Source of the DNA: a virus
UHGV virus genome: UHGV-0117027
DNA length: 17,497 nucleotides
Strand: one strand, 5' to 3'
Below are positions 2,967 to 17,220 of this stretch, piece after piece. A model generated the notes under the pieces. The model made no database searches. It was not told the DNA's origin and worked only from the letters and a program-made list of their open reading frames with translations. Within the stretch, counting starts at the first letter, position 1; each line of letters opens with the position of its first letter. Made by a program: the position numbers and the translations under genes.

Positions 2967-3056
2967 TTAATTTTTGTTTTTAAGTGCTTTTAACATTTCT
3001 TCTATGAAGTCCGCATAGCGTTCATGTTCGTTGGGACGATAGTTTACGTTTTTCAT
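2967..3056 (-). CDS. small ORF (29 aa), first gene of the leftward cassette
   Basis: ATG at 3056 preceded by AGAGGA SD with 7-nt spacer; encodes MKNVNYRPNEHERYADFIEEMLKALKNKN; stop 12 nt before the secreted-protein start. Too short for composition-based support. Confidence 0.3.
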   Translation of the reverse strand: MKNVNYRPNEHERYADFIEEMLKALKNKN

Positions 3057-3133: not shown

Positions 3134-3162
3134 TTTATACAAAATGGAGTCGTTATAGTAAA
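3134..3162 (-). promoter_or_regulatory. candidate sigma70-type promoter for the leftward cassette
   Basis: Minus strand reads TTTACT (+ coords 3157-3162), 17-bp spacer, TATAAA (+ coords 3134-3139). By-eye match only. Confidence 0.3.
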
Positions 3163-3163
3163 G

Positions 3164-3202
3164 ACATTTTGTATAAAATAGATACACAGATCACAAAAGT
3201 GG
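3164..3202 (+). promoter_or_regulatory. conserved bipartite element upstream of the tape-measure gene
   Basis: ACATTTTGTATA (3164-3175), 8 bp, ACACAGATCACAAAA (3184-3198) then GTGGAG (SD). The same 12-mer and 15-mer recur exactly at 15342-15353 and 15367-15381. Confidence 0.5.
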
Positions 3203-5876: not shown

Positions 5877-6131
5877 TCACTTGTGAGCGCCTTTCACCCC
5901 ACAGTGCCTGTTATATTCCAGGTGGTCAATAATTAACCACATCTTTAAATCTTCGCTGAATAACCGCCAATCGGGGTTGATGTCAAATTTATAACCGTAG
6001 CCATCGCGTAATTTTTTGGGGTTGGCCTCTTTTTTAAGAAAAGCATCAAGCAATTGCTTTCCTTTCTTGATGATCCGGTCCTGTGCGTTTTTCTGTGCTT
6101 TCAGGTTTTTACCAATCGCCACCAATTTCAT
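5877..6131 (-). CDS. small basic protein (84 aa); RelE/YafQ-like toxin fold is a weak by-eye candidate
   Basis: ATG at 6131 (track ORF starts at an upstream GTG). Lys-rich N-terminal half, then NPDWRLF strand, MWLIID strand and C-terminal EYNRH; recalled YafQ/RelE-type toxins share the PDW...strand...basic/His C-terminus pattern. Not verified by alignment. Confidence 0.5.
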   Translation of the reverse strand: MKLVAIGKNLKAQKNAQDRIIKKGKQLLDAFLKKEANPKKLRDGYGYKFDINPDWRLFSEDLKMWLIIDHLEYNRHCGVKGAHK

Positions 6132-6149
6132 AACACACCCCACAATCCA

Positions 6150-6305
6150 TTAGTTGACCACTTTCAGGAAGAAATCACGGTACTCGTTTTCCTTCGCATT
6201 CATCATGAATTGACCGTATTTGAATGCGTCATCAAAGCCTTTGACTATCGCCACTTCCACCTGTTCGAATGCGTTGTTCAGCATTACCACTACATAACGC
6301 TTCAT
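6150..6305 (-). CDS. small protein (51 aa), first gene of cassette
   Basis: ATG at 6305 preceded by AAAGGAGG SD (5-nt spacer); hand-translated as MKRYVVVMLNNAFEQVEVAIVKGFDDAFKYGQFMMNAKENEYRDFFLKVVN; stop 18 nt before the 84-aa gene start. Confidence 0.5.
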   Translation of the reverse strand: MKRYVVVMLNNAFEQVEVAIVKGFDDAFKYGQFMMNAKENEYRDFFLKVVN

Positions 6306-6346
6306 ATTGGCCTCCTTTGTCGGTACTGCTTTTTCTTCTTGCTTAC

Positions 6347-6375
6347 TATATACATCTTGTCACGCCTTATGTGAA
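6347..6375 (-). promoter_or_regulatory. candidate sigma70-type promoter for the four-gene leftward cassette
   Basis: Minus strand reads TTCACA (+ coords 6370-6375), 17-bp spacer, TATATA (+ coords 6347-6352), about 40 nt upstream of the first cassette start codon. Confidence 0.35.
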
Positions 6376-6390
6376 GCCATTTTGTAAACT
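6376..6390. promoter_or_regulatory. conserved intergenic element GCCATTTTGTAAACT
   Basis: 14 of 15 identical to GCCATTTTGTTAACT at 7972-7986; both sit at the head of a leftward cassette and contain the ACAAAATGG core on the minus strand. Confidence 0.45.
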
Positions 6391-6474
6391 GGTTATAATT
6401 CTTGTGATGAATTTCTCATTTTTCGCGTAGAAGCGCGTAAAGATGTATGCAATATGTAACTTATAGGGGGAATC

Positions 6475-6828
6475 ATGCCAGAAGTTTTCAGATGGACGCC
6501 GCAAAGAAGCTACAGCGTGACCAGGGAACCAAATGTGTCTGTCGTTAAACTTGGTGATGGTTATGAACAGCGCCAGGCGAAAGGGATTAACACGTTGCTT
6601 GATAGTTATACCCTGGTTTTCAAAGGCAGTAGCGCGGGATGTGGTGATGGTGGAAACGTGGCGATCCAGGCCGAAGCATTTTTGAGGGCGCGCGGCGCTG
6701 TCGAGGCGTTTTACTGGACTCCATCGATCGACGGGGTGCAAAGGCTTTTCGTTTGCCGTAGCTGGAGCATGACCAAAGACGGGCCTGTGTACACGCTAAA
6801 CGCAACGTTTGAACAAGTTGTTGGCTAA
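6475..6828 (+). CDS. M: minor tail protein M homologue (distal tail protein)
   Basis: 117 aa; N-terminal FRW...V..V.LGDGYEQR and C-terminal ...FEQVV match the lambda gpM pattern as recalled (FRW...FGDGYSQR...EFEQVV); GGGGGA SD upstream. Confidence 0.9.
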   Translation: MPEVFRWTPQRSYSVTREPNVSVVKLGDGYEQRQAKGINTLLDSYTLVFKGSSAGCGDGGNVAIQAEAFLRARGAVEAFYWTPSIDGVQRLFVCRSWSMTKDGPVYTLNATFEQVVG

Positions 6829-7183: not shown

Positions 7184-7432
7184 CTATAAGTTATCACGCA
7201 GATAATTAACGCCCTTATCAGTGACGAATGAATGGTTAACCTGGTTTTCATCCGTCATGATGATAAATAACTTTTCCTGTAGGTATTTAGCTTTCGGGTA
7301 CAGCGTTAAACAGACCTGGTACAGTATCCCGCGCTCAATCAGCAAATCAATAAATTCGTGTTCATGATAACCAACGAGGCGGGCGGCCTGTTTCAGCGTG
7401 TACACATAATCGCCGTGATTGCGCCGCCCCAT
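7184..7432 (-). CDS. small protein (82 aa) with helix-turn-helix-like segment, putative DNA-binding
   Basis: Start at 7432 overlaps an AGGGGG SD placed on the upstream gene stop; segment TLKQAARLVGYHEHEFIDLLIERGIL resembles an HTH. Family not identified. Confidence 0.55.
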   Translation of the reverse strand: MGRRNHGDYVYTLKQAARLVGYHEHEFIDLLIERGILYQVCLTLYPKAKYLQEKLFIIMTDENQVNHSFVTDKGVNYLRDNL

Positions 7433-7958: not shown

Positions 7959-7971
7959 AACGCACCTCCGC

Positions 7972-7986
7972 GCCATTTTGTTAACT
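7972..7986. promoter_or_regulatory. conserved intergenic element GCCATTTTGTTAACT
   Basis: Near-identical to 6376-6390; a related CCATTTTGG lies at 8035-8043 and an oppositely oriented ATCACAAAATG at 8064-8074. Confidence 0.45.
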
Positions 7987-8063
7987 TCCCCTTCGTTTGA
8001 GTAAAATATACATATTGTAAAAACCATGAACAATCCATTTTGGTGTGATTTAGCGTGACGCAT

Positions 8064-8074
8064 ATCACAAAATG
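8064..8074 (+). promoter_or_regulatory. ATCACAAAATG element 24 nt upstream of the L start
   Basis: Same core as ATCACAAAAGTGG (3190-3202, 23 nt before the tape-measure ATG) and ATCACAAAATGG (15373-15384, before the tail-fibre gene). Confidence 0.45.
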
Positions 8075-8087
8075 ACAAGGTGAGAAA

Positions 8088-10013: not shown

Positions 10014-13000
10014 ATGAGTAGCGGCGGCGGCAAAGCAAAAACACCAACATTAATAAATGATAACCTTTATCACAAACAGTTTTATCGTGTGCTGGATATT
10101 ATTTCGGAAGGCCCGATTTATGGCCCTGTCAATACCAGTGCGCCATTAAATAGCGTAATGCTTAATGACACGCCTGTAACTGACGCGAACGGTAATACCA
10201 GCATCCCAGGCGTTAGCGTGGCGTGGCGTAATGGTACGTTAGATCAATCACCGATTAACGGTTTTAATGCCATCGAATCCACGGTAATGGTTAACGCACA
10301 GGTGAAACACGACACGCCGCTGGTAAGGACCGTATCAGATCCGAACGTGACGCGAGTCCGGTTAAATATTGGTGTGGATTCACTGGTGGAAAGCGATAGC
10401 CAATCAAACCAGAAAGAAACATCTGTCATTATGGCGATCGACGTTAAACCGTCCTCATCCTCAACATGGTCGTCTATTAAGGCCGTGCAAATAGGTCCAG
10501 GTAAAATCAGCGGAGAATACCTTGAAGCGCATATTATTGATGCGCCAGATGAAAAGCCGTTTGATATTCGCGTTCGCCGCGTAACCGCTGATAGCACAGG
10601 TGATCTATTGCAGAATGATACGCGGTGGAGTAGCTACAGCGAAATAATCGACGATAATTTGTCTTATCCTCACACTGCTGTAGCAGGCGCGGTAATTGAT
10701 CACGATCAGTATACTGACACACCTACACGCACTTATCACCTGCGTGGGCTTATTGTTGACGTGCCTGATAACTACGACCCGGAAACGCGCACTTATTCCG
10801 GTTTATGGCTTGGCGGCTTTAAACAGGCTTACACTAATAACCCTGCGTGGATCTTTCGTTACCTGGTTAAAAACGAGCGTTTCGGCCTTGCCCGCCATGC
10901 TGGTTATATCGACGTTGACGACGGCGCATTATACACACTTTCCCAATACTGCGACCAGTTGGTCGATGATGGTTACGGTGGCCTTGAGCCTCGCGTGACG
11001 CTTAATGCGTACATAACAGAGCAAATGAGCGCCCGCGATTTGCTGGACAATATCGCCGGGATGTTCCGTGGCATCGCGTTATGGGACGGGCAACGTCTTA
11101 CCGTAATGATTGATGCACCGCAAGATCCAATCGCCACCATTACGAATGCAAACGTCGTTGATGGCGCGTTCACTCGTTCGAGTATCGCCCGTGCGGAATG
11201 CTACAACGCCGTGATCGTATCCTGGACTGACCCGGAAAACGGGTGGGAGCAGTCAAAAGAGTATGTAGCAGATGATGAGCTAATCGCCCGCGATGGTTAC
11301 AACGAAACCACGATGGAGGCGTTCGGCTGTACGTCACGCGGGCAAGCGTACCGCGCGGGCAAATGGCTGATAGAAACAGCAAAACGCGAGCCGTCAAAAT
11401 TCACGTTTAAAATGGCACGTGACGCGATTCACTTTACGCCAGGGGATATAGTCGAAATCCTCGACAATAACCGCGCAGGTGCGCGTTTAGGTGGGCGTAT
11501 CGTGGCGAACAATGGAAACGTGATAACGGTCGATAAGGTTGACAGCGACTATATCACAGCAGGCGACACCATCAGCTTACTCGACAGCGACGGCAAATTT
11601 AAAAAACATCAGATTACTGGTGTAAACGGAAACGAAATCACACTAGCGGCGGCCCCGGCATGGATTCGGAACGGTACTGTATTTGCTGTATCCACCGAAG
11701 CGGAAAAACCCGTTTTATGCCGGATCACCAGTGTAGCCGAAACCGAAAATAATAGCGTGTATACCATCGAAGCAGCGCAACATGACCCGAACAAACAAGC
11801 GGTAGTCGATGAAGGCGCGATATTTGAAATCAACAACGACACGCTTAATCACTTCCGTGTCCCGAACATTGAAAACCTGAAAGTGGTAAACATCGGATCT
11901 GAAACAGTTCAATGCCGAGCTACATGGGAAACACAGACAACCACGCATCGCATGACATTCGAGATCCGCATATACAATACTGATGGTGCGGTGGTTAAAA
12001 GCTACGAAACAACGAAATACAGTTATGATTTTTATGGTATTGACGCTGGCGCGTATTCGTTAGGCGTTCGCGGAAGAAACGATACTGGCATGAAAGGCGC
12101 TGAAAGCATTGTTGATCTTGTTATTGGTGCTCCAGCCGCGCCAGTTGGCGTAAATTGGGTTCCAGGCGTATTTCAGGCGACCGTGTACCCGATAAGCAAA
12201 ACCACGCTTACTACCGATACGTCATATGAATTCTACTATGCAGGGGAAAATCAGATCACAGATCCGGCAAAAATAACCACGTCGGCACAGTTTACCGGGC
12301 GCGGGTATCAGTGGACGTTCGGCGGCATGAATACGGGCCATACTTATTACGTTTATGTGCGCACTCGTAATGCTTTTGGTGTGTCTGATTTCGTCGAGGC
12401 ATCAGGTAAGCCAACAGAGGATTTTGACGAAATCACTGATTACGTTACAAAGGATGTAATGGAATCAGAGCAATTCAAGGAGATGATTAGCGACATTAAA
12501 GATCTTGGTGAGCGCACTGATATTGTAGAAGGAGCTACCGAAGACCTTAAAATAGCTACAGAGGATCTTAAAGCTGACACAGATACACTTAAAAAAGACA
12601 CCGAAGACCTTTATAAAAAAGTCGAAGAAAACGCCGATGAAATAGGCAAACATGAGGTAAGAATAGACTCATTAGAGGTATCAAACGAAAACGTTAACAA
12701 CGAACTGGCACAGGCAAAAGCAAGTTTACAAAACGCTTCGCTTGCTCTGATCAATAACTCGCTTGCTCAAACTAACACGCGGGTTACTCTTACCGCTCAA
12801 TATAAGAAAGGTCGCAACGAAACAAAGGCACAGATTGACCGCATCGACAACGTTATCGCAGAGGAGAAAAAAGCGACAGCGGAATCACTGGAAACCATCA
12901 CAGCCGAAATAAATACGATAGACTCAAACATCAAAGGAGAAATAGCCCGCGTAGACAAAGCAATCGCAACCGAAACGCAGGCGAGAACGGAAGCTATAAG

Positions 13001-14066
13001 CAACGTTAACGCCAGTATCAGCAGCCTGGAAAACAAAACTGATGCGAGCGTTTCTCGTCTCGATCAAGCTATCGCTGACGAATCAAGCGCCCGCGCTCAG
13101 GCAATATCAGGAATCAGTGCGGAGCTTGGTCTTGTTGAAAATGAGGTTGATAAAAACAGCAACGAAATAGATCAGGCAAAAGCAAGTCTGCAAAACGCCT
13201 CGATTGCACTTATCAACAACTCAATAGCGCAAAGCAAGATGAGCACCGTTATTGAGGCGAAGTACAGGAAAGGCCAGACAAAAACAAAAGCGGAAATAGC
13301 AAGGATCGACACAGCAATAGCAGACGAAACCCAGGCCCGCGCGGAGGCTATAGCATCACTTGAAGCCAATATTAATGAAAACATTTCAGCAAAAATAACA
13401 GATATATCAACGGCGCTCGCAACTCACGAGGCATCAAGTGCTGAAAAATTTGTTCAAATATCGGCATCTTTCGACGATGTAAACTCAAGTATCACGGAAT
13501 GGTCACAGGCCATGACAACGACTGACGAGGCATTATCAACCAAAATTGACCAGTTAAAAGTAACTATTGACGGGAACACAACAGCCATAGAGACGACATC
13601 GAAAGCGTTAACGGACTTTAAGGGGAATGTCGATGCATCATACTCTATTAAGATCGCGACAGACAGCAGAGGCGTTAAATATGCTACCGGCATGTCGCTC
13701 GGCCTTACTGGTAGCGGGACTAATGTCCAATCGCAGTGTATTTTCCTCGTTGATCGCTTCGTGTTAATGACCGCCGCAAACGGCACATATACAACGCCTT
13801 TCTATGTCACTGGCGGCGCAATGTATGTACGTGAAGCGTTTATTAAGGACGCATCAATCACTAACGCGAAAATAGGTTCTTACATCCAATCAAATAACTA
13901 TGTTTCCGGCAGCACAGGCTGGAAACTTGATAAATCCGGTACATTCGAAAACTACGGATCAGTAAGCGGTGAAGGAGCAATGAAATGGACGAACACAACT
14001 ATCTCAGTAAAAGATGGTAATGGCGTGTTACGCGTCCAGATTGGGCGAATTACCGGATCATGGTAG
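10014..14066 (+). CDS. J: host specificity / central tail fibre protein J homologue with extended coiled-coil stalk
   Basis: 1350-aa ORF directly after I with AGGAG SD; large N-terminal tail-tip region, a heptad-rich repetitive stalk (about aa 800-1200) and a beta-rich C-terminal domain; position and size match lambda J. Confidence 0.9.
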   Translation: MSSGGGKAKTPTLINDNLYHKQFYRVLDIISEGPIYGPVNTSAPLNSVMLNDTPVTDANGNTSIPGVSVAWRNGTLDQSPINGFNAIESTVMVNAQVKHDTPLVRTVSDPNVTRVRLNIGVDSLVESDSQSNQKETSVIMAIDVKPSSSSTWSSIKAVQIGPGKISGEYLEAHIIDAPDEKPFDIRVRRVTADSTGDLLQNDTRWSSYSEIIDDNLSYPHTAVAGAVIDHDQYTDTPTRTYHLRGLIVDVPDNYDPETRTYSGLWLGGFKQAYTNNPAWIFRYLVKNERFGLARHAGYIDVDDGALYTLSQYCDQLVDDGYGGLEPRVTLNAYITEQMSARDLLDNIAGMFRGIALWDGQRLTVMIDAPQDPIATITNANVVDGAFTRSSIARAECYNAVIVSWTDPENGWEQSKEYVADDELIARDGYNETTMEAFGCTSRGQAYRAGKWLIETAKREPSKFTFKMARDAIHFTPGDIVEILDNNRAGARLGGRIVANNGNVITVDKVDSDYITAGDTISLLDSDGKFKKHQITGVNGNEITLAAAPAWIRNGTVFAVSTEAEKPVLCRITSVAETENNSVYTIEAAQHDPNKQAVVDEGAIFEINNDTLNHFRVPNIENLKVVNIGSETVQCRATWETQTTTHRMTFEIRIYNTDGAVVKSYETTKYSYDFYGIDAGAYSLGVRGRNDTGMKGAESIVDLVIGAPAAPVGVNWVPGVFQATVYPISKTTLTTDTSYEFYYAGENQITDPAKITTSAQFTGRGYQWTFGGMNTGHTYYVYVRTRNAFGVSDFVEASGKPTEDFDEITDYVTKDVMESEQFKEMISDIKDLGERTDIVEGATEDLKIATEDLKADTDTLKKDTEDLYKKVEENADEIGKHEVRIDSLEVSNENVNNELAQAKASLQNASLALINNSLAQTNTRVTLTAQYKKGRNETKAQIDRIDNVIAEEKKATAESLETITAEINTIDSNIKGEIARVDKAIATETQARTEAISNVNASISSLENKTDASVSRLDQAIADESSARAQAISGISAELGLVENEVDKNSNEIDQAKASLQNASIALINNSIAQSKMSTVIEAKYRKGQTKTKAEIARIDTAIADETQARAEAIASLEANINENISAKITDISTALATHEASSAEKFVQISASFDDVNSSITEWSQAMTTTDEALSTKIDQLKVTIDGNTTAIETTSKALTDFKGNVDASYSIKIATDSRGVKYATGMSLGLTGSGTNVQSQCIFLVDRFVLMTAANGTYTTPFYVTGGAMYVREAFIKDASITNAKIGSYIQSNNYVSGSTGWKLDKSGTFENYGSVSGEGAMKWTNTTISVKDGNGVLRVQIGRITGSW
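12711..13634 (+). repeat. in-frame tandem duplication (period 462 nt = 154 codons) inside J
   Basis: CAGGCAAAAGCAAGT...CAAAACGC at 12711 recurs at 13173; protein QAKASLQNASLALINNSLAQ versus QAKASLQNASIALINNSIAQ; shorter R[IVL]D-x-[AV]IA-x-E..AR.EAI units occur at least four times. Confidence 0.6.
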
Positions 14067-14072
14067 AATTAA

Positions 14073-14102
14073 GAGGCCGACTTGTTCGGCCTCAGTTTTA
14101 TT
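14073..14102 (+). terminator. rho-independent terminator / attenuator after J
   Basis: GAGGCCG (14073-14079), loop ACTTGTT, CGGCCTC (14087-14093), then AGTTTTATT; the SD of the next gene (GGAGG 14105-14109) follows immediately. Confidence 0.6.
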
Positions 14103-14116
14103 ATGGAGGTGTAACT

Positions 14117-14428
14117 ATGGATACTTTCGGCGTGGCAACATGGGACGCCAACGGCAACGCTAATAACTACGGCATCAAGCCATCCGTCGTGGTTGGCTAT
14201 ATTTCCTTGTCTTCCGGGCAAGTGTCAGGCACATATAATTTTACCGTTCCTACAGGATGTAAATTATCTTATGCCATGACGCTTGATTATGGCACAACAT
14301 CATCAACGCGTAGAAAGATCAGTATTTCCGGCGGTACTGTTTCCATTTCCTCAGCAGGGGATACGGTGGGCGCTAATATATGGCCCGCATCGCAATGTGA
14401 ACTGGTTATTTTTACGGAGAACGCATAA
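14117..14428 (+). CDS. small beta-rich protein (103 aa), tail-associated, unknown function
   Basis: ATG 14117 with GGAGG SD (7-nt spacer); stop TAA abuts the next ATG (TAAATG); N-terminus MDTFGVATWDANGNANN resembles that of the following gene. Confidence 0.55.
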   Translation: MDTFGVATWDANGNANNYGIKPSVVVGYISLSSGQVSGTYNFTVPTGCKLSYAMTLDYGTTSSTRRKISISGGTVSISSAGDTVGANIWPASQCELVIFTENA

Positions 14429-15028
14429 ATGGCTACTTTCGGCGCTTATTTACGTTTAAGTAATGGCAATATTTTCGTAACTCCAGATTCGACACCTATG
14501 TGCCTTTATTCACGGGTTGCTCTCAATTCAAGCCAACAGCAAACAATAGCCGTCCCCAATGGGAAGCCTGTAATGGTATTCATAAAAAACACAGACGATA
14601 CCGCTACTGGTGTAGCCTATCGCAATTCATCGTCTACCATAGTGATTCCACCAGGAAACGGTTACGCGTATATATTCAGTATCTTCCCGCAATCGCGTCC
14701 GAAGTGGGGTATGGCTATATGGAACGCTTCCGGTGAACTGGTATTGACAAACGAATCAAGAATATTGACAGACATTGTTACGGTGGGGACAGCCGGATCA
14801 AGTGGTGGAATTTATATCGACCAGACATTATCAGGATCTTATGCGGTAGTGCCTCAGATATTAGGGGCCGTTGTAGGTATGGGTTCTGCGACAATATATA
14901 CAGAGGCATACTACAACGGCAGCACTACACGAATTCGCGGGAAGATGGTTGGTAGCTTGCAACAGATTTACGGTTACATTAATCACGGGAACGCTATCAC
15001 CGCCATTAAAACCGACGCCTATGATTAA
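14429..15028 (+). CDS. beta-rich protein (199 aa), paralogue-like partner of the upstream gene, unknown function
   Basis: Translationally coupled to the upstream gene; N-terminus MATFGAYLRLSNGN...; Ser/Thr/Gly/Asn-rich like fibre or adhesin domains. Confidence 0.6.
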   Translation: MATFGAYLRLSNGNIFVTPDSTPMCLYSRVALNSSQQQTIAVPNGKPVMVFIKNTDDTATGVAYRNSSSTIVIPPGNGYAYIFSIFPQSRPKWGMAIWNASGELVLTNESRILTDIVTVGTAGSSGGIYIDQTLSGSYAVVPQILGAVVGMGSATIYTEAYYNGSTTRIRGKMVGSLQQIYGYINHGNAITAIKTDAYD

Positions 15029-15264
15029 TTCAGTTCCGGGCAATCCGTTTTCTTGAAGTGGTCAACGCTTACCCATTGGAAGTTAAACGGATACCCGGCC
15101 TTAACCATTTTATGACCGCCAACATCCGCGACACCGAAGACTGCAACCGCATATTCATTACCGCCAGCCTGATAAATTGCCGTGCATTCACGTTTCGGCA
15201 TATCAGCACAACCAACCATACCAGCGACCATTGCAGCTATAGCGATATTTTTAAAGCCTTTCAT
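15025..15264 (-). CDS. small lipoprotein (79-aa precursor), candidate Cor/Llp-type superinfection exclusion protein
   Basis: ATG at 15264 with GGAGGA SD (7-nt spacer), preferred over the far-upstream track start at 15408; MKGFKNIAIAAMVAGMVG-C: signal peptide plus lipobox-like Cys, mature part about 60 aa with two more Cys. Divergent from the tail-fibre gene. Confidence 0.6.
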   Translation of the reverse strand: MKGFKNIAIAAMVAGMVGCADMPKRECTAIYQAGGNEYAVAVFGVADVGGHKMVKAGYPFNFQWVSVDHFKKTDCPELN

Positions 15265-15341
15265 TGTCTTATCCTCCATTGTTCCGTCGGTTGTAGTATC
15301 CATAAACATCGTTTTCTCAACATTGATATAAATCAATAAAT

Positions 15342-15384
15342 ACATTTTGTATAGGTCAGGAATGTAACACAGATCACAAAATGG
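15342..15384 (+). promoter_or_regulatory. conserved bipartite element upstream of the tail-fibre gene
   Basis: ACATTTTGTATA (15342-15353), 13 bp, ACACAGATCACAAAA (15367-15381) then TGG; exact copies of the two blocks at 3164-3175 and 3184-3198. Confidence 0.5.
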
Positions 15385-15423
15385 TAAAATTACCAGGTTA
15401 ATTAACATAATGGAGTCATTGCG

Positions 15424-17220
15424 ATGATTTACACAACAGGCACGATAGCCGTTAGCGGAAAAACAGTTACCGGAACGGGGACTGAATTCAACGCCGCATT
15501 ATCTCTGATCAGAGTTGGGTGCACTCTTATTGCCATTAGCGATCCGGTGCAAATTTTTTCAATCACAGAGGTAAAAAGCGCAACAAGTTTGTCGGTAACT
15601 CCGGCGGCAAGTCCGGCTATTCCGGCTGGGACTAAATTTAGCATCCTGCTTTCAGATTCGATCTCTGTAGATGGTCTTGCTCAGGATGTTGCCGAAACAC
15701 TACGTTACTATCAGGGCAAGGAATCAGAAATAGCTGACGCCGTCGAATTTTTTAGCGACAACAAAGATGTGATTTCAGCCTCAAAATTAGCATCAGAATC
15801 AGCTACCACTGCAACCAACGCAGCAACAACAGCAACAAGCGCCGCCGATTCAGCTAAGGCATACAGAGACGAGGCCCACGAATACGCCAATCAGACGGCT
15901 CAGCCTTACGCGTATGTTTTGCAGCCGCTGCCGGATGTATGGATACCGTTTAACGATTCTCTCGATATGATTACTGGTTTTTCTCCTTCCTATAAAAAAA
16001 TTGTTATTGGTGACGATGAAATAACGATGCCTGGCGACAAGATTGTTAAGTTTAAACGTGCATCGAAAGCAACCTATATTAACAAATCTGGTGTGCTGAC
16101 AGAGGCTGCCATTGACGAGCCACGATTTGAACGTGATGGCCTGCTTATTGAGGGGCAAAGAACGAACTTCTTCCAGAACAGTGCAGACCCTTCGAAGTGG
16201 AATAAGTCAACTTCACTGGACGTTACAGAAACAGGCACAGATAGTTTCGGGTTTAATTATGGCCGGTTTGTCGTACAGGATTCGATTGTTGGTACAAGTA
16301 AAGCGCATACCATTATCGGACTGTATTCGAGTACCGGAGGGGTTGATACTTCAGGGGACGAAAAGTATGTAACTATATCCTGTCGGGTAAAAAGTGAAGT
16401 TGATAATATCGCCGTTCGTATTTTATTTGAACATTATGATGGGGAGGTAAGGACATCAATAGGAACAGCAAACCTTAACCTTACCACCCGCATAATTAGC
16501 AAGACAGGTCAGACAAGCCGTGTTACAGCAAGGTCTGTTAAGGATGATGCAACTGGCTGGATATTTTTTGAGGCTACATTAAAAGCAGATACAACAGAAA
16601 ATACGGTTGGTGGTTTTGTCCAGTATTCTCCAGATACAGGGCAGATGGTTGCATCAGGGGATTATCTCGATGTAACCACTCCACAGATTGAGGCTGGTAC
16701 AGGCGCATCATCTTTTATTGTTACGGGGACGGCGGCGGCAACGCGTGCAAGTGACATAGCCACGGCCCCGATAAAGAACAACCTTTATAATGCACCATTC
16801 ACTATTCTTTGCGAGGTACATAAAAATTGGGAAAAAACGCCGAGTTCAGCGCCGCGTGTTTTTGACACAGGCGGCCATCAGACTGGCGCGGCTATAATTC
16901 TTGCTTTTGGGTCGTCGACAGAATACGACGGATTTCCTTATTGCGATATTGGAGGAGCAAACAGGCGCGTTAACGAAAACGCATCAATGCAAAAAATGAT
17001 TATCGGCATGAGGGTTAAAAGCACCTATGATGCATGTTGTGTCAGTAACGGACGCATATCAAGCGAAACAAAAACAACATGGAGATATATATCTAACGCA
17101 GCAATATTCCGTTTCGGCGGTCAAACAACATCAGGGGAGCGACATCTTTTTGGACACATTAGAAATTTCAGGGTATGGCACAAAGCATTAACCGATGCGC
17201 AATTGAGCGAGATTGTTTAA
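15424..17220 (+). CDS. side tail fibre protein with Ala/Thr-rich N-terminal region and LamG/ConA-like C-terminal domain (putative)
   Basis: 598 aa; GGAG SD 8 nt upstream; low-complexity SESATTATNAATTATSAADSAKAYRDEA typical of tail-fibre N-terminal regions; C-terminal ...RHLFGHIRNFRVWHKALTDAQLSEIV resembles the end of LamG-like jelly-roll domains. Confidence 0.8.
   Translation: MIYTTGTIAVSGKTVTGTGTEFNAALSLIRVGCTLIAISDPVQIFSITEVKSATSLSVTPAASPAIPAGTKFSILLSDSISVDGLAQDVAETLRYYQGKESEIADAVEFFSDNKDVISASKLASESATTATNAATTATSAADSAKAYRDEAHEYANQTAQPYAYVLQPLPDVWIPFNDSLDMITGFSPSYKKIVIGDDEITMPGDKIVKFKRASKATYINKSGVLTEAAIDEPRFERDGLLIEGQRTNFFQNSADPSKWNKSTSLDVTETGTDSFGFNYGRFVVQDSIVGTSKAHTIIGLYSSTGGVDTSGDEKYVTISCRVKSEVDNIAVRILFEHYDGEVRTSIGTANLNLTTRIISKTGQTSRVTARSVKDDATGWIFFEATLKADTTENTVGGFVQYSPDTGQMVASGDYLDVTTPQIEAGTGASSFIVTGTAAATRASDIATAPIKNNLYNAPFTILCEVHKNWEKTPSSAPRVFDTGGHQTGAAIILAFGSSTEYDGFPYCDIGGANRRVNENASMQKMIIGMRVKSTYDACCVSNGRISSETKTTWRYISNAAIFRFGGQTTSGERHLFGHIRNFRVWHKALTDAQLSEIV

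Follow-up and report, generated by a model that had tools for sequence, protein, structure and literature searches.

Candidate repressor-operator and CRP-type sites recur in the tail-module control regions of an mEp021-group coliphage

The stretch of DNA analysed here (hereafter the window, 17,497 nucleotides of the virus genome UHGV-0117027) is the tail module of a temperate coliphage of the mEp021 group (mEpimmI). Upstream of both its tape-measure and its tail-fibre gene the window carries the same two words in the same order, a 12-mer (ACATTTTGTATA) at 3164-3175 and 15342-15353 and a 15-mer (ACACAGATCACAAAA) at 3184-3198 and 15367-15381, with spacers of 8 and 13 bp. An earlier note on this DNA took the pair for a shared promoter or operator that restarts rightward transcription, and its positions and spacers hold. 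Here we describe what the two words are made of, where else they occur and which proteins may bind them.

The named relatives mEp013, mEp515, mEp044, mEp554, mEp010, mEp021 and MagusPhagus show 83-88% identity to the window over the aligned 54-75% of its length, and a prophage adjoining dgcM in E. coli M15 is 99.9% identical to it. Owing to an IS903B-family insertion in the part that matches, the prophage region of the M15 chromosome (NZ_CP185789.1, 607964-626526) exceeds the length of the window by about 1 kb. Phages of the mEp021/mEpimmI type have been reported to be as frequent as lambdoid phages among human stool isolates, and immunity in the group is conferred by the CI-like repressor Rep (PMC11893012). 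The same study, the main genomics paper on mEpimmI, maps neither operators nor tail-region promoters (PMC11893012).

The tail module and its divergent control regions

The rightward tail-gene cluster is broken by leftward cassettes at four fixed places in nearly all members of the group; mEp554 has no cassette before the tape-measure gene. Their products in the window include a Cor-type exclusion lipoprotein, a ParE-like toxin and an ANT/KilAC-like protein, and the cassettes end in bidirectional terminators in three cases and in a single leftward terminator in the case of the first. We term the four divergent intergenic regions A to D. Region A is flanked by a leftward start codon (3054-3056) and the tape-measure ATG (3213), region B (about 6306-6474) precedes the M-like gene, region C (about 7960-8087) precedes the L-like gene, and region D lies between the leftward start of the Cor-type lipoprotein (15262-15264) and the fibre ATG at 15424. 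With the start codons located, both word pairs fall, as had been proposed, in divergent intergenic DNA before the first rightward structural gene after a leftward cassette.

The earlier claim that exact repeats of this length exceed chance is true of the 15-mer pair and of the collinear 12-mer and 15-mer, and fails for the 12-mer alone. The window contains 26 exact 12-mer pairs compared to 13.6 per Markov-1 shuffle, so that a 12-mer repeat by itself is expected, whereas an exact 15-mer pair is expected 0.19 times per shuffle, and the best local alignment of region A with region D scores 41 compared to a maximum of 26 in 300 shuffles. Furthermore, we found copies that had been overlooked: a third, inverted copy of the 12-mer (CCATTTTGTATA) on the minus strand at 3136-3147, and related copies in region B (6377-6389 and 6446-6460) and in region C (7973-7985, 8007-8021 and 8058-8072). 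A core, CATTTTGT, is common to the 12-mer and to the 15-mer read on the opposite strand.

Two kinds of site in the repeated words

The 12-mer makes up 12 of the 15 bp of a palindrome, TATACA-N3-TGTATA, the centre of which is W3 in many copies (consensus (T/A)ATACA-N3-TGTAT(A/T)). The word CATTTTGT/ACAAAATG is the top intergenic-enriched 8-mer of the complete mEp021 genome, where 14 of the 17 copies of CATTTTGT are located in the 6.4 kb of intergenic DNA that represent 12% of the genome. Scanning for the palindrome with at least 10 of 12 arm matches returned 10 sites in the M15 composite genome compared to 0.47 expected, and 8 in mEp021 compared to 0.6; the window sites starting at 15339, 8007 and 3161 agree with it at 10-11 of the 12 positions of the arms.

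Rep, which the M15 prophage encodes outside the window, consists of an HTH_3 and an S24 peptidase (Peptidase_S24) domain, and its best solved relative is the lambda repressor (3bdn, E = 1e-20). Its recognition helix, GITKGxxSHWLNxRREP, is common to the Rep homologues (alignment A1), and same-helix homologues are found in the classical cro-rep arrangement in prophages of Tatumella, Serratia, Enterobacter and Citrobacter, in an Erwinia phage and in ST64T, a Salmonella phage of the phage L immunity type. The cro-repressor gaps of these lambdoid or P22-like phages hold 2-3 tandem copies of the dyad (three in most, two scored in ST64T), and 1-3 further dyads, spaced 25-33 bp, are present at their OL positions. 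Outside OL and OR the palindrome is absent from these phages. We trained an operator matrix on 19 sites from the OR and OL arrays of four heterologous prophages (training range 11.3-20.4); the arrays of ST64T and the Erwinia phage, read directly, show the same dyad.

Applied to the window, this matrix places operator or operator-like sites in each of regions A to D (Table 1). As a control, ST64T yields exactly four matches with a score of at least 12, every one of them at OL or OR. mEp021 yields nine at the same threshold, distributed from the replication genes through to the fibre gene, and the M15 composite has 10 matches compared to 1.6 expected. Across the mEp-type genomes there are 9-10 operator sites, 4-5 times the number expected by chance, and they are not confined to OL and OR. 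In the M15 prophage, a top-scoring operator (TATACATAATGTATT, score 20.3; L009 36265-36279) overlaps the start codon of the major capsid gene and has no equivalent in mEp021.

Because a relative of the L171 lineage keeps both the sites and a near-identical Rep helix-turn-helix, despite an unrelated Cro-like protein and a gp08-like protein of 29% identity, Rep, and less likely a host factor, is the expected binder. The 12-mer is probably the core of the operator of the phage's own CI/C2-type immunity repressor Rep, as judged from the match to the arrays of same-helix phages. Other candidates were rejected. In the L171 lineage an unrelated HTH_3 protein takes the place of the Cro-like protein, and the sites persist. 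A Lrp/AsnC regulator would fit the shape of the dyad (abcde-W3-e'd'c'b'a'), but the protein concerned has no Pfam or NCBIfam match and shows only 29% identity to its counterpart in a relative with the sites retained. This 185-amino-acid protein (L009 5161-5718, minus strand), called an 'Lrp/AsnC family transcriptional regulator' by PGAP, looks like two winged-helix repeats and is encoded in the replication operon. To our knowledge the motif does not fit the consensus of OmpR, IHF, Fis, LexA, TyrR, EvgA, DnaA or GadE. A scan of the genome contigs with Rep gave no match, and a literature search for the motif strings returned no relevant paper.

The operator type is also found in the immunity region. 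There, one copy abuts the -35 of a strong predicted PR (TTGACT-17-TATATT, promoter score 15.0) and is the sole element, besides the hexamers, that is kept among the three lineages examined. Directly beside the -35 of a PRM-like promoter, in the position of lambda OR2, stands a weaker operator-like site. From this promoter (TTGCAT-17-TAGGGT) rep is predicted to be transcribed apparently without a leader, with 6 nt from the -10 to the ATG (L008 11100-11220; L009 11530-11585). In lambda, cI is transcribed leaderless from PRM, with OR2 beside that promoter. The rep start codon annotated in the mEp021 record lies later than the PGAP call for M15. Furthermore, the early region of M15 (L009 20008-20023 and 11541-11556) contains a perfect CRP-core site, TGTGATGTGGATCACA, as well as a one-mismatch site overlapping the -35 of the PRM-like rep promoter. 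The perfect site is located between two operator-like sites, one scored by the matrix and one read by eye, in a region that holds TERM_4 in mEp021; ST64T has no perfect CRP-core site of the M15 kind.

The 15-mer is a different kind of site. It scores -0.9 or lower with the operator matrix and was rejected as a Rep operator on this ground. Read with 4-5 further bases on its upstream side it becomes TGTAA-CACAGA-TCACA, in agreement with the CRP-family consensus TGTGA-N6-TCACA at 9 of 10 positions, so that the 15-mer corresponds to the spacer and right half of a site of this type. Only three matches to this consensus with at most one mismatch are present in the window, and they lie at 6403-6418 (region B), 8054-8069 (C) and 15363-15378 (D). 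Among the 39 distinct relatives with region C, 38 keep CGTGA and TCACA, with one mismatch and 11 spacer variants; in region D the conserved positions are TG.AA and T(C)ACA. Because two 5-bp half-sites are kept around a free 6-bp spacer, the pattern is the signature of a dimer site with CRP/FNR-family geometry. In related phages the element is kept at the C and D sites, and the full 15-mer can be missing from region A.

The two kinds of site occur together more often than expected: ATCACA boxes are enriched within 50 bp of operator centres (7 of 40 compared to 0.62 expected, P = 3e-6). In region D variants that lack the cassette, the box is lost (AATGACAAAACG) and the operator is kept, which ties the CRP-type box to the leftward cassette. 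The box centres are located at -60.5 (A), -72.5 (B), -63.5 (C) and -82.5 (D) from the predicted leftward starts, distances that are class-I-like and, being based on predicted start sites, suggestive only. In A, B and D the box also overlaps the predicted rightward promoter. Host cAMP-CRP would be the simplest candidate binder of the 15-mer box. In region D, a perfect FNR-type box is centred 41.5 bp from the predicted leftward start (about 15288) of the Cor-type lipoprotein gene, which suggests anaerobic control of superinfection exclusion.

Table 1. Operator-like sites, CRP-type and FNR-type boxes and associated features of regions A to D (promoter elements are predictions).
Feature	Position	Strand	Remarks
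O_A1, operator-like site TATACAAAATGGAGT	3136..3150	.	score 10.1; holds inverted 12-mer; present in 7 of 7 named relatives; overlaps predicted leftward -10 TATAAA (reverse complement of 3134-3139)
O_A2, operator AAGACATTTTGTATA	3161..3175	.	score 14.4, inside training range; holds 12-mer 3164-3175; abuts/overlaps predicted rightward -10 TAAAAT (3174-3179)
Region A weak CRP-type box AGATA-CACAGA-TCACA + AAA	3180..3198	.	7/10 half-site bases; operator score < 0; holds 15-mer 3184-3198; in relatives reads AGAGA-N6-TCACA
Region B weak operator-like site AAGCCATTTTGTAAA	6374..6388	.	operator score 6.2; within spacer of predicted promoter GTGAAG-17-TATAAT (-10 6394-6399; score 11.0) of M-like gene (6475-6828)
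Region B CRP-type box TGTGA-TGAATT-TCTCA	6403..6418	.	1 mismatch; TGTGA kept, spacer variable among 8 sequences
Region B operator-like site TATGCAATATGTAAC	6446..6460	.	score 9.8; directly before Shine-Dalgarno (SD) sequence of M-like gene; same in 7 of 8 sequences, variant in MagusPhagus
Region C 12-mer-like word CCATTTTGTTAAC	7973..7985	+	supplies predicted -35 TTGTTA (7978-7983); rightward -10 TAAAAT 8002-8007; promoter score 11.0
O_C, operator TATACATATTGTAAA	8007..8021	.	score 16.5; minimum 14.4, median 16.5 in 39 distinct relatives; overlaps predicted rightward start and predicted leftward -10 TATATT (reverse complement of 8005-8010)
Region C CRP-type box CGTGA-CGCATA-TCACA	8054..8069	.	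1 mismatch; overlaps 15-mer-like word ACGCATATCACAAAA (8058-8072)
Cor-type superinfection-exclusion lipoprotein gene	15025..15264	-	NCBIfam lamb_exclu_cor, E = 1e-14; leftward cassette beside region D
Region D FNR-type box TTGAT-ATAA-ATCAA (TTGATATAAATCAA), perfect	15323..15336	.	kept in relatives carrying cor-type cassette
O_D, operator AATACATTTTGTATA	15339..15353	.	score 20.4, equal to best training site; holds 12-mer 15342-15353; median 17.2 in 29 distinct relatives; centre about -51 from predicted fibre promoter start, distance kept in cassette-less variants
Region D CRP-type box TGTAA-CACAGA-TCACA + AAA	15363..15381	.	1 mismatch; holds 15-mer 15367-15381; fills -35/-10 spacer of predicted fibre promoter
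Region D extended -10 TGGTAAAAT	15382..15390	+	predicted promoter of fibre gene (15424-17220), score 10.0, start about 15397

Promoters, proposed mechanism and alternatives

Divergent promoter pairs are predicted with scores of 10-11 for regions B, C and D; those of region A are weaker. A simple promoter scan returned fewer sites than shuffles overall, and found only the region C promoter. Single promoter predictions are weak, and the argument is therefore carried by conservation. In region C, the -35 TTGTTA (inside CCATTTTGTTAAC) and the -10 TA[A/C]AAT are invariant in the 39 distinct relatives around a variable spacer, and the operator directly after the -10 is nearly invariant. In the 29 distinct relatives with region D, the invariant blocks are ACATT.TG, ATxACAAAATGGTAxAAT and GTTAATTAAC. 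The cassette-less D variants (five distinct sequences at six loci) keep the order of terminator, operator (for example the perfect TATACATAATGTATA), 30-31 nt and TAAAAT, with the operator centre still at about -50/-51; because they keep both, operator and promoter belong to the fibre gene and not to the cassette. For region A, conservation rests on 8 sequences, since an IMG/VR search with the tape-measure N-terminus returned one locus.

With respect to the proposed restart of rightward transcription, a promoter just before the fibre gene is plausible: an extended -10 (TGG followed by TAAAAT, TAGAAT or TATAAT) is found there in every mEp-type variant, cassette-less ones included. What is not supported is a promoter type shared between the regions. 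Where a leftward gene precedes L in lambda-like relatives, only a terminator and an SD are present. Relative to the predicted rightward starts, the operator centres are located at about -18 in A, -25 in B, -36 and +1 in C and -51 in D, and the 15-mer at about -2 to +13 in A and -30 to -16 in D. In A, B and C the sites overlap with elements of predicted promoters (-10, -35 or start); at PR the operator abuts the -35, and in D its centre is near -51. Such differing positions are not those of a fixed core-promoter element; they are compatible with repression or roadblocking.

The sites share their sequence, are enriched and conserved, and are found next to each other in the tail module. On balance, and with a confidence only a little above even, we favour the reading that the two repeated words are separate protein-binding sites, one an operator of Rep and the other a CRP-type box, that repeatedly occur as a pair in the tail module's control regions. 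As to which proteins bind and in which direction regulation runs, we infer the following from the sequence. In the lysogen, Rep bound to its dispersed operators would silence the internal rightward promoters or block read-through. The tape-measure, M-like, L-like and fibre blocks, each of which comes after a leftward cassette, would each have a sigma-70 promoter of their own, as predicted. Upon loss of Rep these internal promoters would fire, and tail-gene transcription would restart beyond the cassettes, beside Q-dependent read-through. The leftward cassettes would be expressed under the control of host CRP, with FNR in addition for cor. Since the CRP-type box lies at class-I-like distances from the leftward promoters and overlaps rightward ones, cassette expression, and perhaps silencing of the tail promoters, is probably tied to host physiology.

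We regard as tentative, and as rather doubtful in its full extent, the broader proposal of a CI-type repressor with a genome-wide operator network, in which Rep silences or roadblocks Q-independent sigma-70 promoters at the tail blocks and at early junctions in combination with host CRP and FNR sites. CI-type repressors are known from textbooks as regulators that act only at the two operator clusters of the immunity region. If the proposal were true, a single repressor, together with the nutritional and oxygen status of the host, would govern prophage silencing, tail-gene restart and the expression of the exclusion and toxin-antitoxin cassettes alike, and the sites would be a dyad-symmetric, CI-family counterpart of the P1 C1 operators and the mycobacteriophage stoperators.

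Several observations weigh against the favoured reading. The region A copy of the CRP-type box has three mismatches, with a poor left half (AGATA), and most relatives have two mismatches to the CRP consensus in region D; the CRP assignment as a whole comes from consensus matching alone, and the class-I distances hang on predicted starts. Promoters and start sites are predictions from a sigma-70 weight matrix with which similar scores arise about once per kb. PR has one strong operator and not the usual array. Operator placement is non-uniform, from -51 to +1, and at -51 the region D operator occupies no obvious repressing position. Moreover, restart promoters are not strictly required, because a Q-like antiterminator is present and lambda-like relatives manage with a terminator and SD. 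Finally, a host factor or another conserved phage protein with Rep-like specificity could conceivably be the binder.

One alternative explanation leaves the operator in place and assigns the 15-mer to a phage protein, as a low-affinity cooperative Rep site or as the site of a Q-like or ANT-like regulator. It would account for the fact that the 3' end of the 15-mer, extended by TGG (ACAAAATGG), is identical in sequence to the core of the PR operator TATACAAAATGGATT, for operator-to-box spacings (20-48 bp) that partly overlap the OR/OL spacings of 25-33 bp, and for the invariance of ATxACAAAATGGTAxAAT in the 29 distinct D regions. We nonetheless consider it rather unlikely, given the negative operator score of the 15-mer, the conserved half-sites around a free spacer that are CRP/FNR-family geometry, and the cassette-less D variants, which keep the operator and lose the box. 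We also rejected the 15-mer as a Q-binding element and region D as a paralogue of the late promoter, for which alignments of the late-promoter region with regions A to D are no better than shuffles.

If the shared promoter of the earlier note is taken as a core promoter, the 12-mer and 15-mer would be the -35 and -10, or an extended -10, of a common rightward late-restart promoter. Consistent with this, CCATTTTGTTAAC supplies the predicted -35 in region C, the end of the region A 12-mer runs into TAAAAT, and TAAAAT is the -10 in 4 of the 5 promoters compared. The distance from the motif to the conserved -10, however, differs among A, B, C and D, the 15-bp dyad is found in both orientations and is the repeated operator unit at OR and OL of unrelated phages, and no significant similarity was found to the phage's late promoter region before the holin gene. 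A shared promoter is accordingly improbable, and what remains of "promoter or operator" is the operator, for the 12-mer, by virtue of the matrix derived from the OR/OL arrays of unrelated phages.

The earlier note thought Dam sensitivity possible from the GATC of the 15-mer; such a switch would make promoter activity or regulator binding depend on methylation by host Dam or a Dam-like enzyme of the phage. In its favour are the presence of GATC in both window copies and in most relatives and an N6-adenine methyltransferase encoded by the phage. GATC is, however, not invariant: of the distinct sequences, 25 of 29 for region D and 35 of 39 for region C contain it, and the remainder (4 of 29, and 3-4 of 39, the window's own C copy among them) have GATT, AATC or TATC in its place, while ACAAAATG is invariant. 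GATC is absent from the cassette-less D variants (AATGACAAAACG). The occurrence of GATC follows from ATCACA being the extended CRP-type half-site, and its frequency in mEp021 is unremarkable, neither depleted nor otherwise unusual (249 observed compared to 210 expected). We thus consider a methylation switch very unlikely. Still less credit can be given to the possibility, raised as a potential refutation of the earlier note, that the identity of A and D is a neutral remnant of recent duplication or gene conversion. In most relatives the two copies are not identical, with 1-2 bases changed between A and D or the full 15-mer missing from A; the perfect 15-mer match seen in this phage is therefore specific to its lineage and may stem from patch recombination. 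But in 29-39 distinct relatives both kinds of element persist at these places despite variable flanking cassettes, and the dyad is strongly over-represented in intergenic DNA genome-wide. The least probable of the explanations is an RNA element, with the inverted CAUUUUGU/ACAAAAUG arms folding in 5' leaders to control translation or processing. Region A can form a 13-bp hairpin (z = -2.0 on either strand) and several sites lie near an SD; yet there is no Rfam match, the fold z is about 0 for C and D, and the sites stand in either orientation to transcription and also at OR and OL of other phages.

Should the operator work at about 10 places, prophage silencing and late-gene logic in mEpimmI phages would differ from the textbook scheme, with repressor-controlled internal promoters that bypass the cassettes. 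The proposal would also link host physiology, through CRP and FNR, to the expression of the exclusion and toxin-antitoxin cassettes. Furthermore, the operator matrix can be used for annotating immunity specificity and regulatory sites in the mEp021 group.

Neighbouring genes and comparison with known systems

The lipoproteins encoded at the cor-type position in mEp021 and mEp010, whether or not they are homologues of the window protein, exclude superinfecting phage (PMC11893012). Between the tape-measure and M-like genes, the ParE-like toxin gene (5877-6143, minus strand) and a small upstream open reading frame (ORF; 6150-6305, minus strand) form a probable toxin-antitoxin pair. The cassette before the L-like gene encodes an antirepressor-like ANT/KilAC-domain protein of 82 amino acids (7184-7432, minus strand), and the predicted promoter of this cassette is overlapped by the operator at 8007-8021. 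One relative, L100 (IMGVR_UViG_3300045988_076424), lacks both the whole leftward cassette and the small ORF between the M-like and L-like genes, with the promoter-operator before L intact. Its junction lies at the CCATTTTGTTAAC word, which led us to consider a site-specific cassette junction; with a microhomology of 2 bp only, this candidate was rejected.

Two rightward ORFs of 122 and 199 amino acids lie between the J-like and cor-type genes (14060-15028) and have no counterpart in the named relatives; the first may not be real, because a bidirectional terminator (14073-14093) falls within it. The J-like gene (1350 amino acids) contains an internal 74-nt repeat, with copies at 12698-12771 and 13160-13233 that are 80% identical and 462 bp apart. 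Its 22-nt core has two weaker matches (73%) in the fibre gene, at 15490 and 15952, again 462 bp apart.

Among known systems, the 12-mer sites resemble the OR and OL operators of lambda CI and P22/L C2, with a 15-bp dyad and an HTH_3 plus S24 repressor as the likely ligand, and the closest sequence match is that of the phage L / ST64T type. In ST64T, the Erwinia phage and several enterobacterial prophages the same consensus is repeated in tandem in the cro-repressor gap and upstream of an N-like gene. As in lambda, where OR2 stands at PRM, an mEp site abuts the -35 of a weak and apparently leaderless repressor promoter. Unlike lambda and P22, about half of the strong mEp sites are located in intergenic DNA of replication, recombination and tail genes, and PR has one strong site in place of the three of OR. 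The 12-mer would accordingly belong to a known operator type, that of phage L / ST64T immunity, and what appears new is its dispersed use in a phage with a CI-type repressor.

Dispersed repressor sites themselves have precedents. In P1, C1 operators are dispersed over the genome. The P1 C1 and stoperator repressors are monomeric and not of the CI type, and their sites are asymmetric, orientation-dependent and number 20-30 per genome, with a stoperator of 13 bp. The mEp sites differ in being dyad-symmetric, in occurring in both orientations, in their number of about 10, and in their proposed ligand, a homologue of lambda CI with a dimerising S24 domain. Stoperators of the Cluster A mycobacteriophages L5 and Bxb1 are likewise dispersed repressor sites (PMC9283540, PMC6550527), and the likeness to the mEp sites consists in one immunity repressor with many sites in short intergenic DNA over early and late genes, and in a proposed role in silencing or blocking in the lysogen.

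The boxes resemble CRP sites at class I/II promoters in their TGTGA-N6-TCACA geometry, with conserved half-sites and a free spacer, and their distances to the predicted leftward starts (-41.5 for the FNR-type box; -82.5, -72.5 and about -61 to -63 for the CRP-type boxes) would be close to the -41.5, -61.5, -71.5 and -82.5 of such promoters. They are unlike classical CRP sites in that the left halves are imperfect (CGTGA, TGTAA, AGATA) and that the boxes also overlap predicted rightward promoters. We know of no CRP control of phage morons at such sites. Lambdoid morons have their own promoter and terminator within the late operon, and the leftward Cor-type, ParE-like and ANT-like cassettes, with their terminators inside the tail-gene cluster, are units of the same kind. 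What sets the mEp arrangement apart is that the structural genes downstream of the cassettes have a conserved promoter and operator of their own, as predicted here, where the lambda-like relatives have a terminator and SD only.

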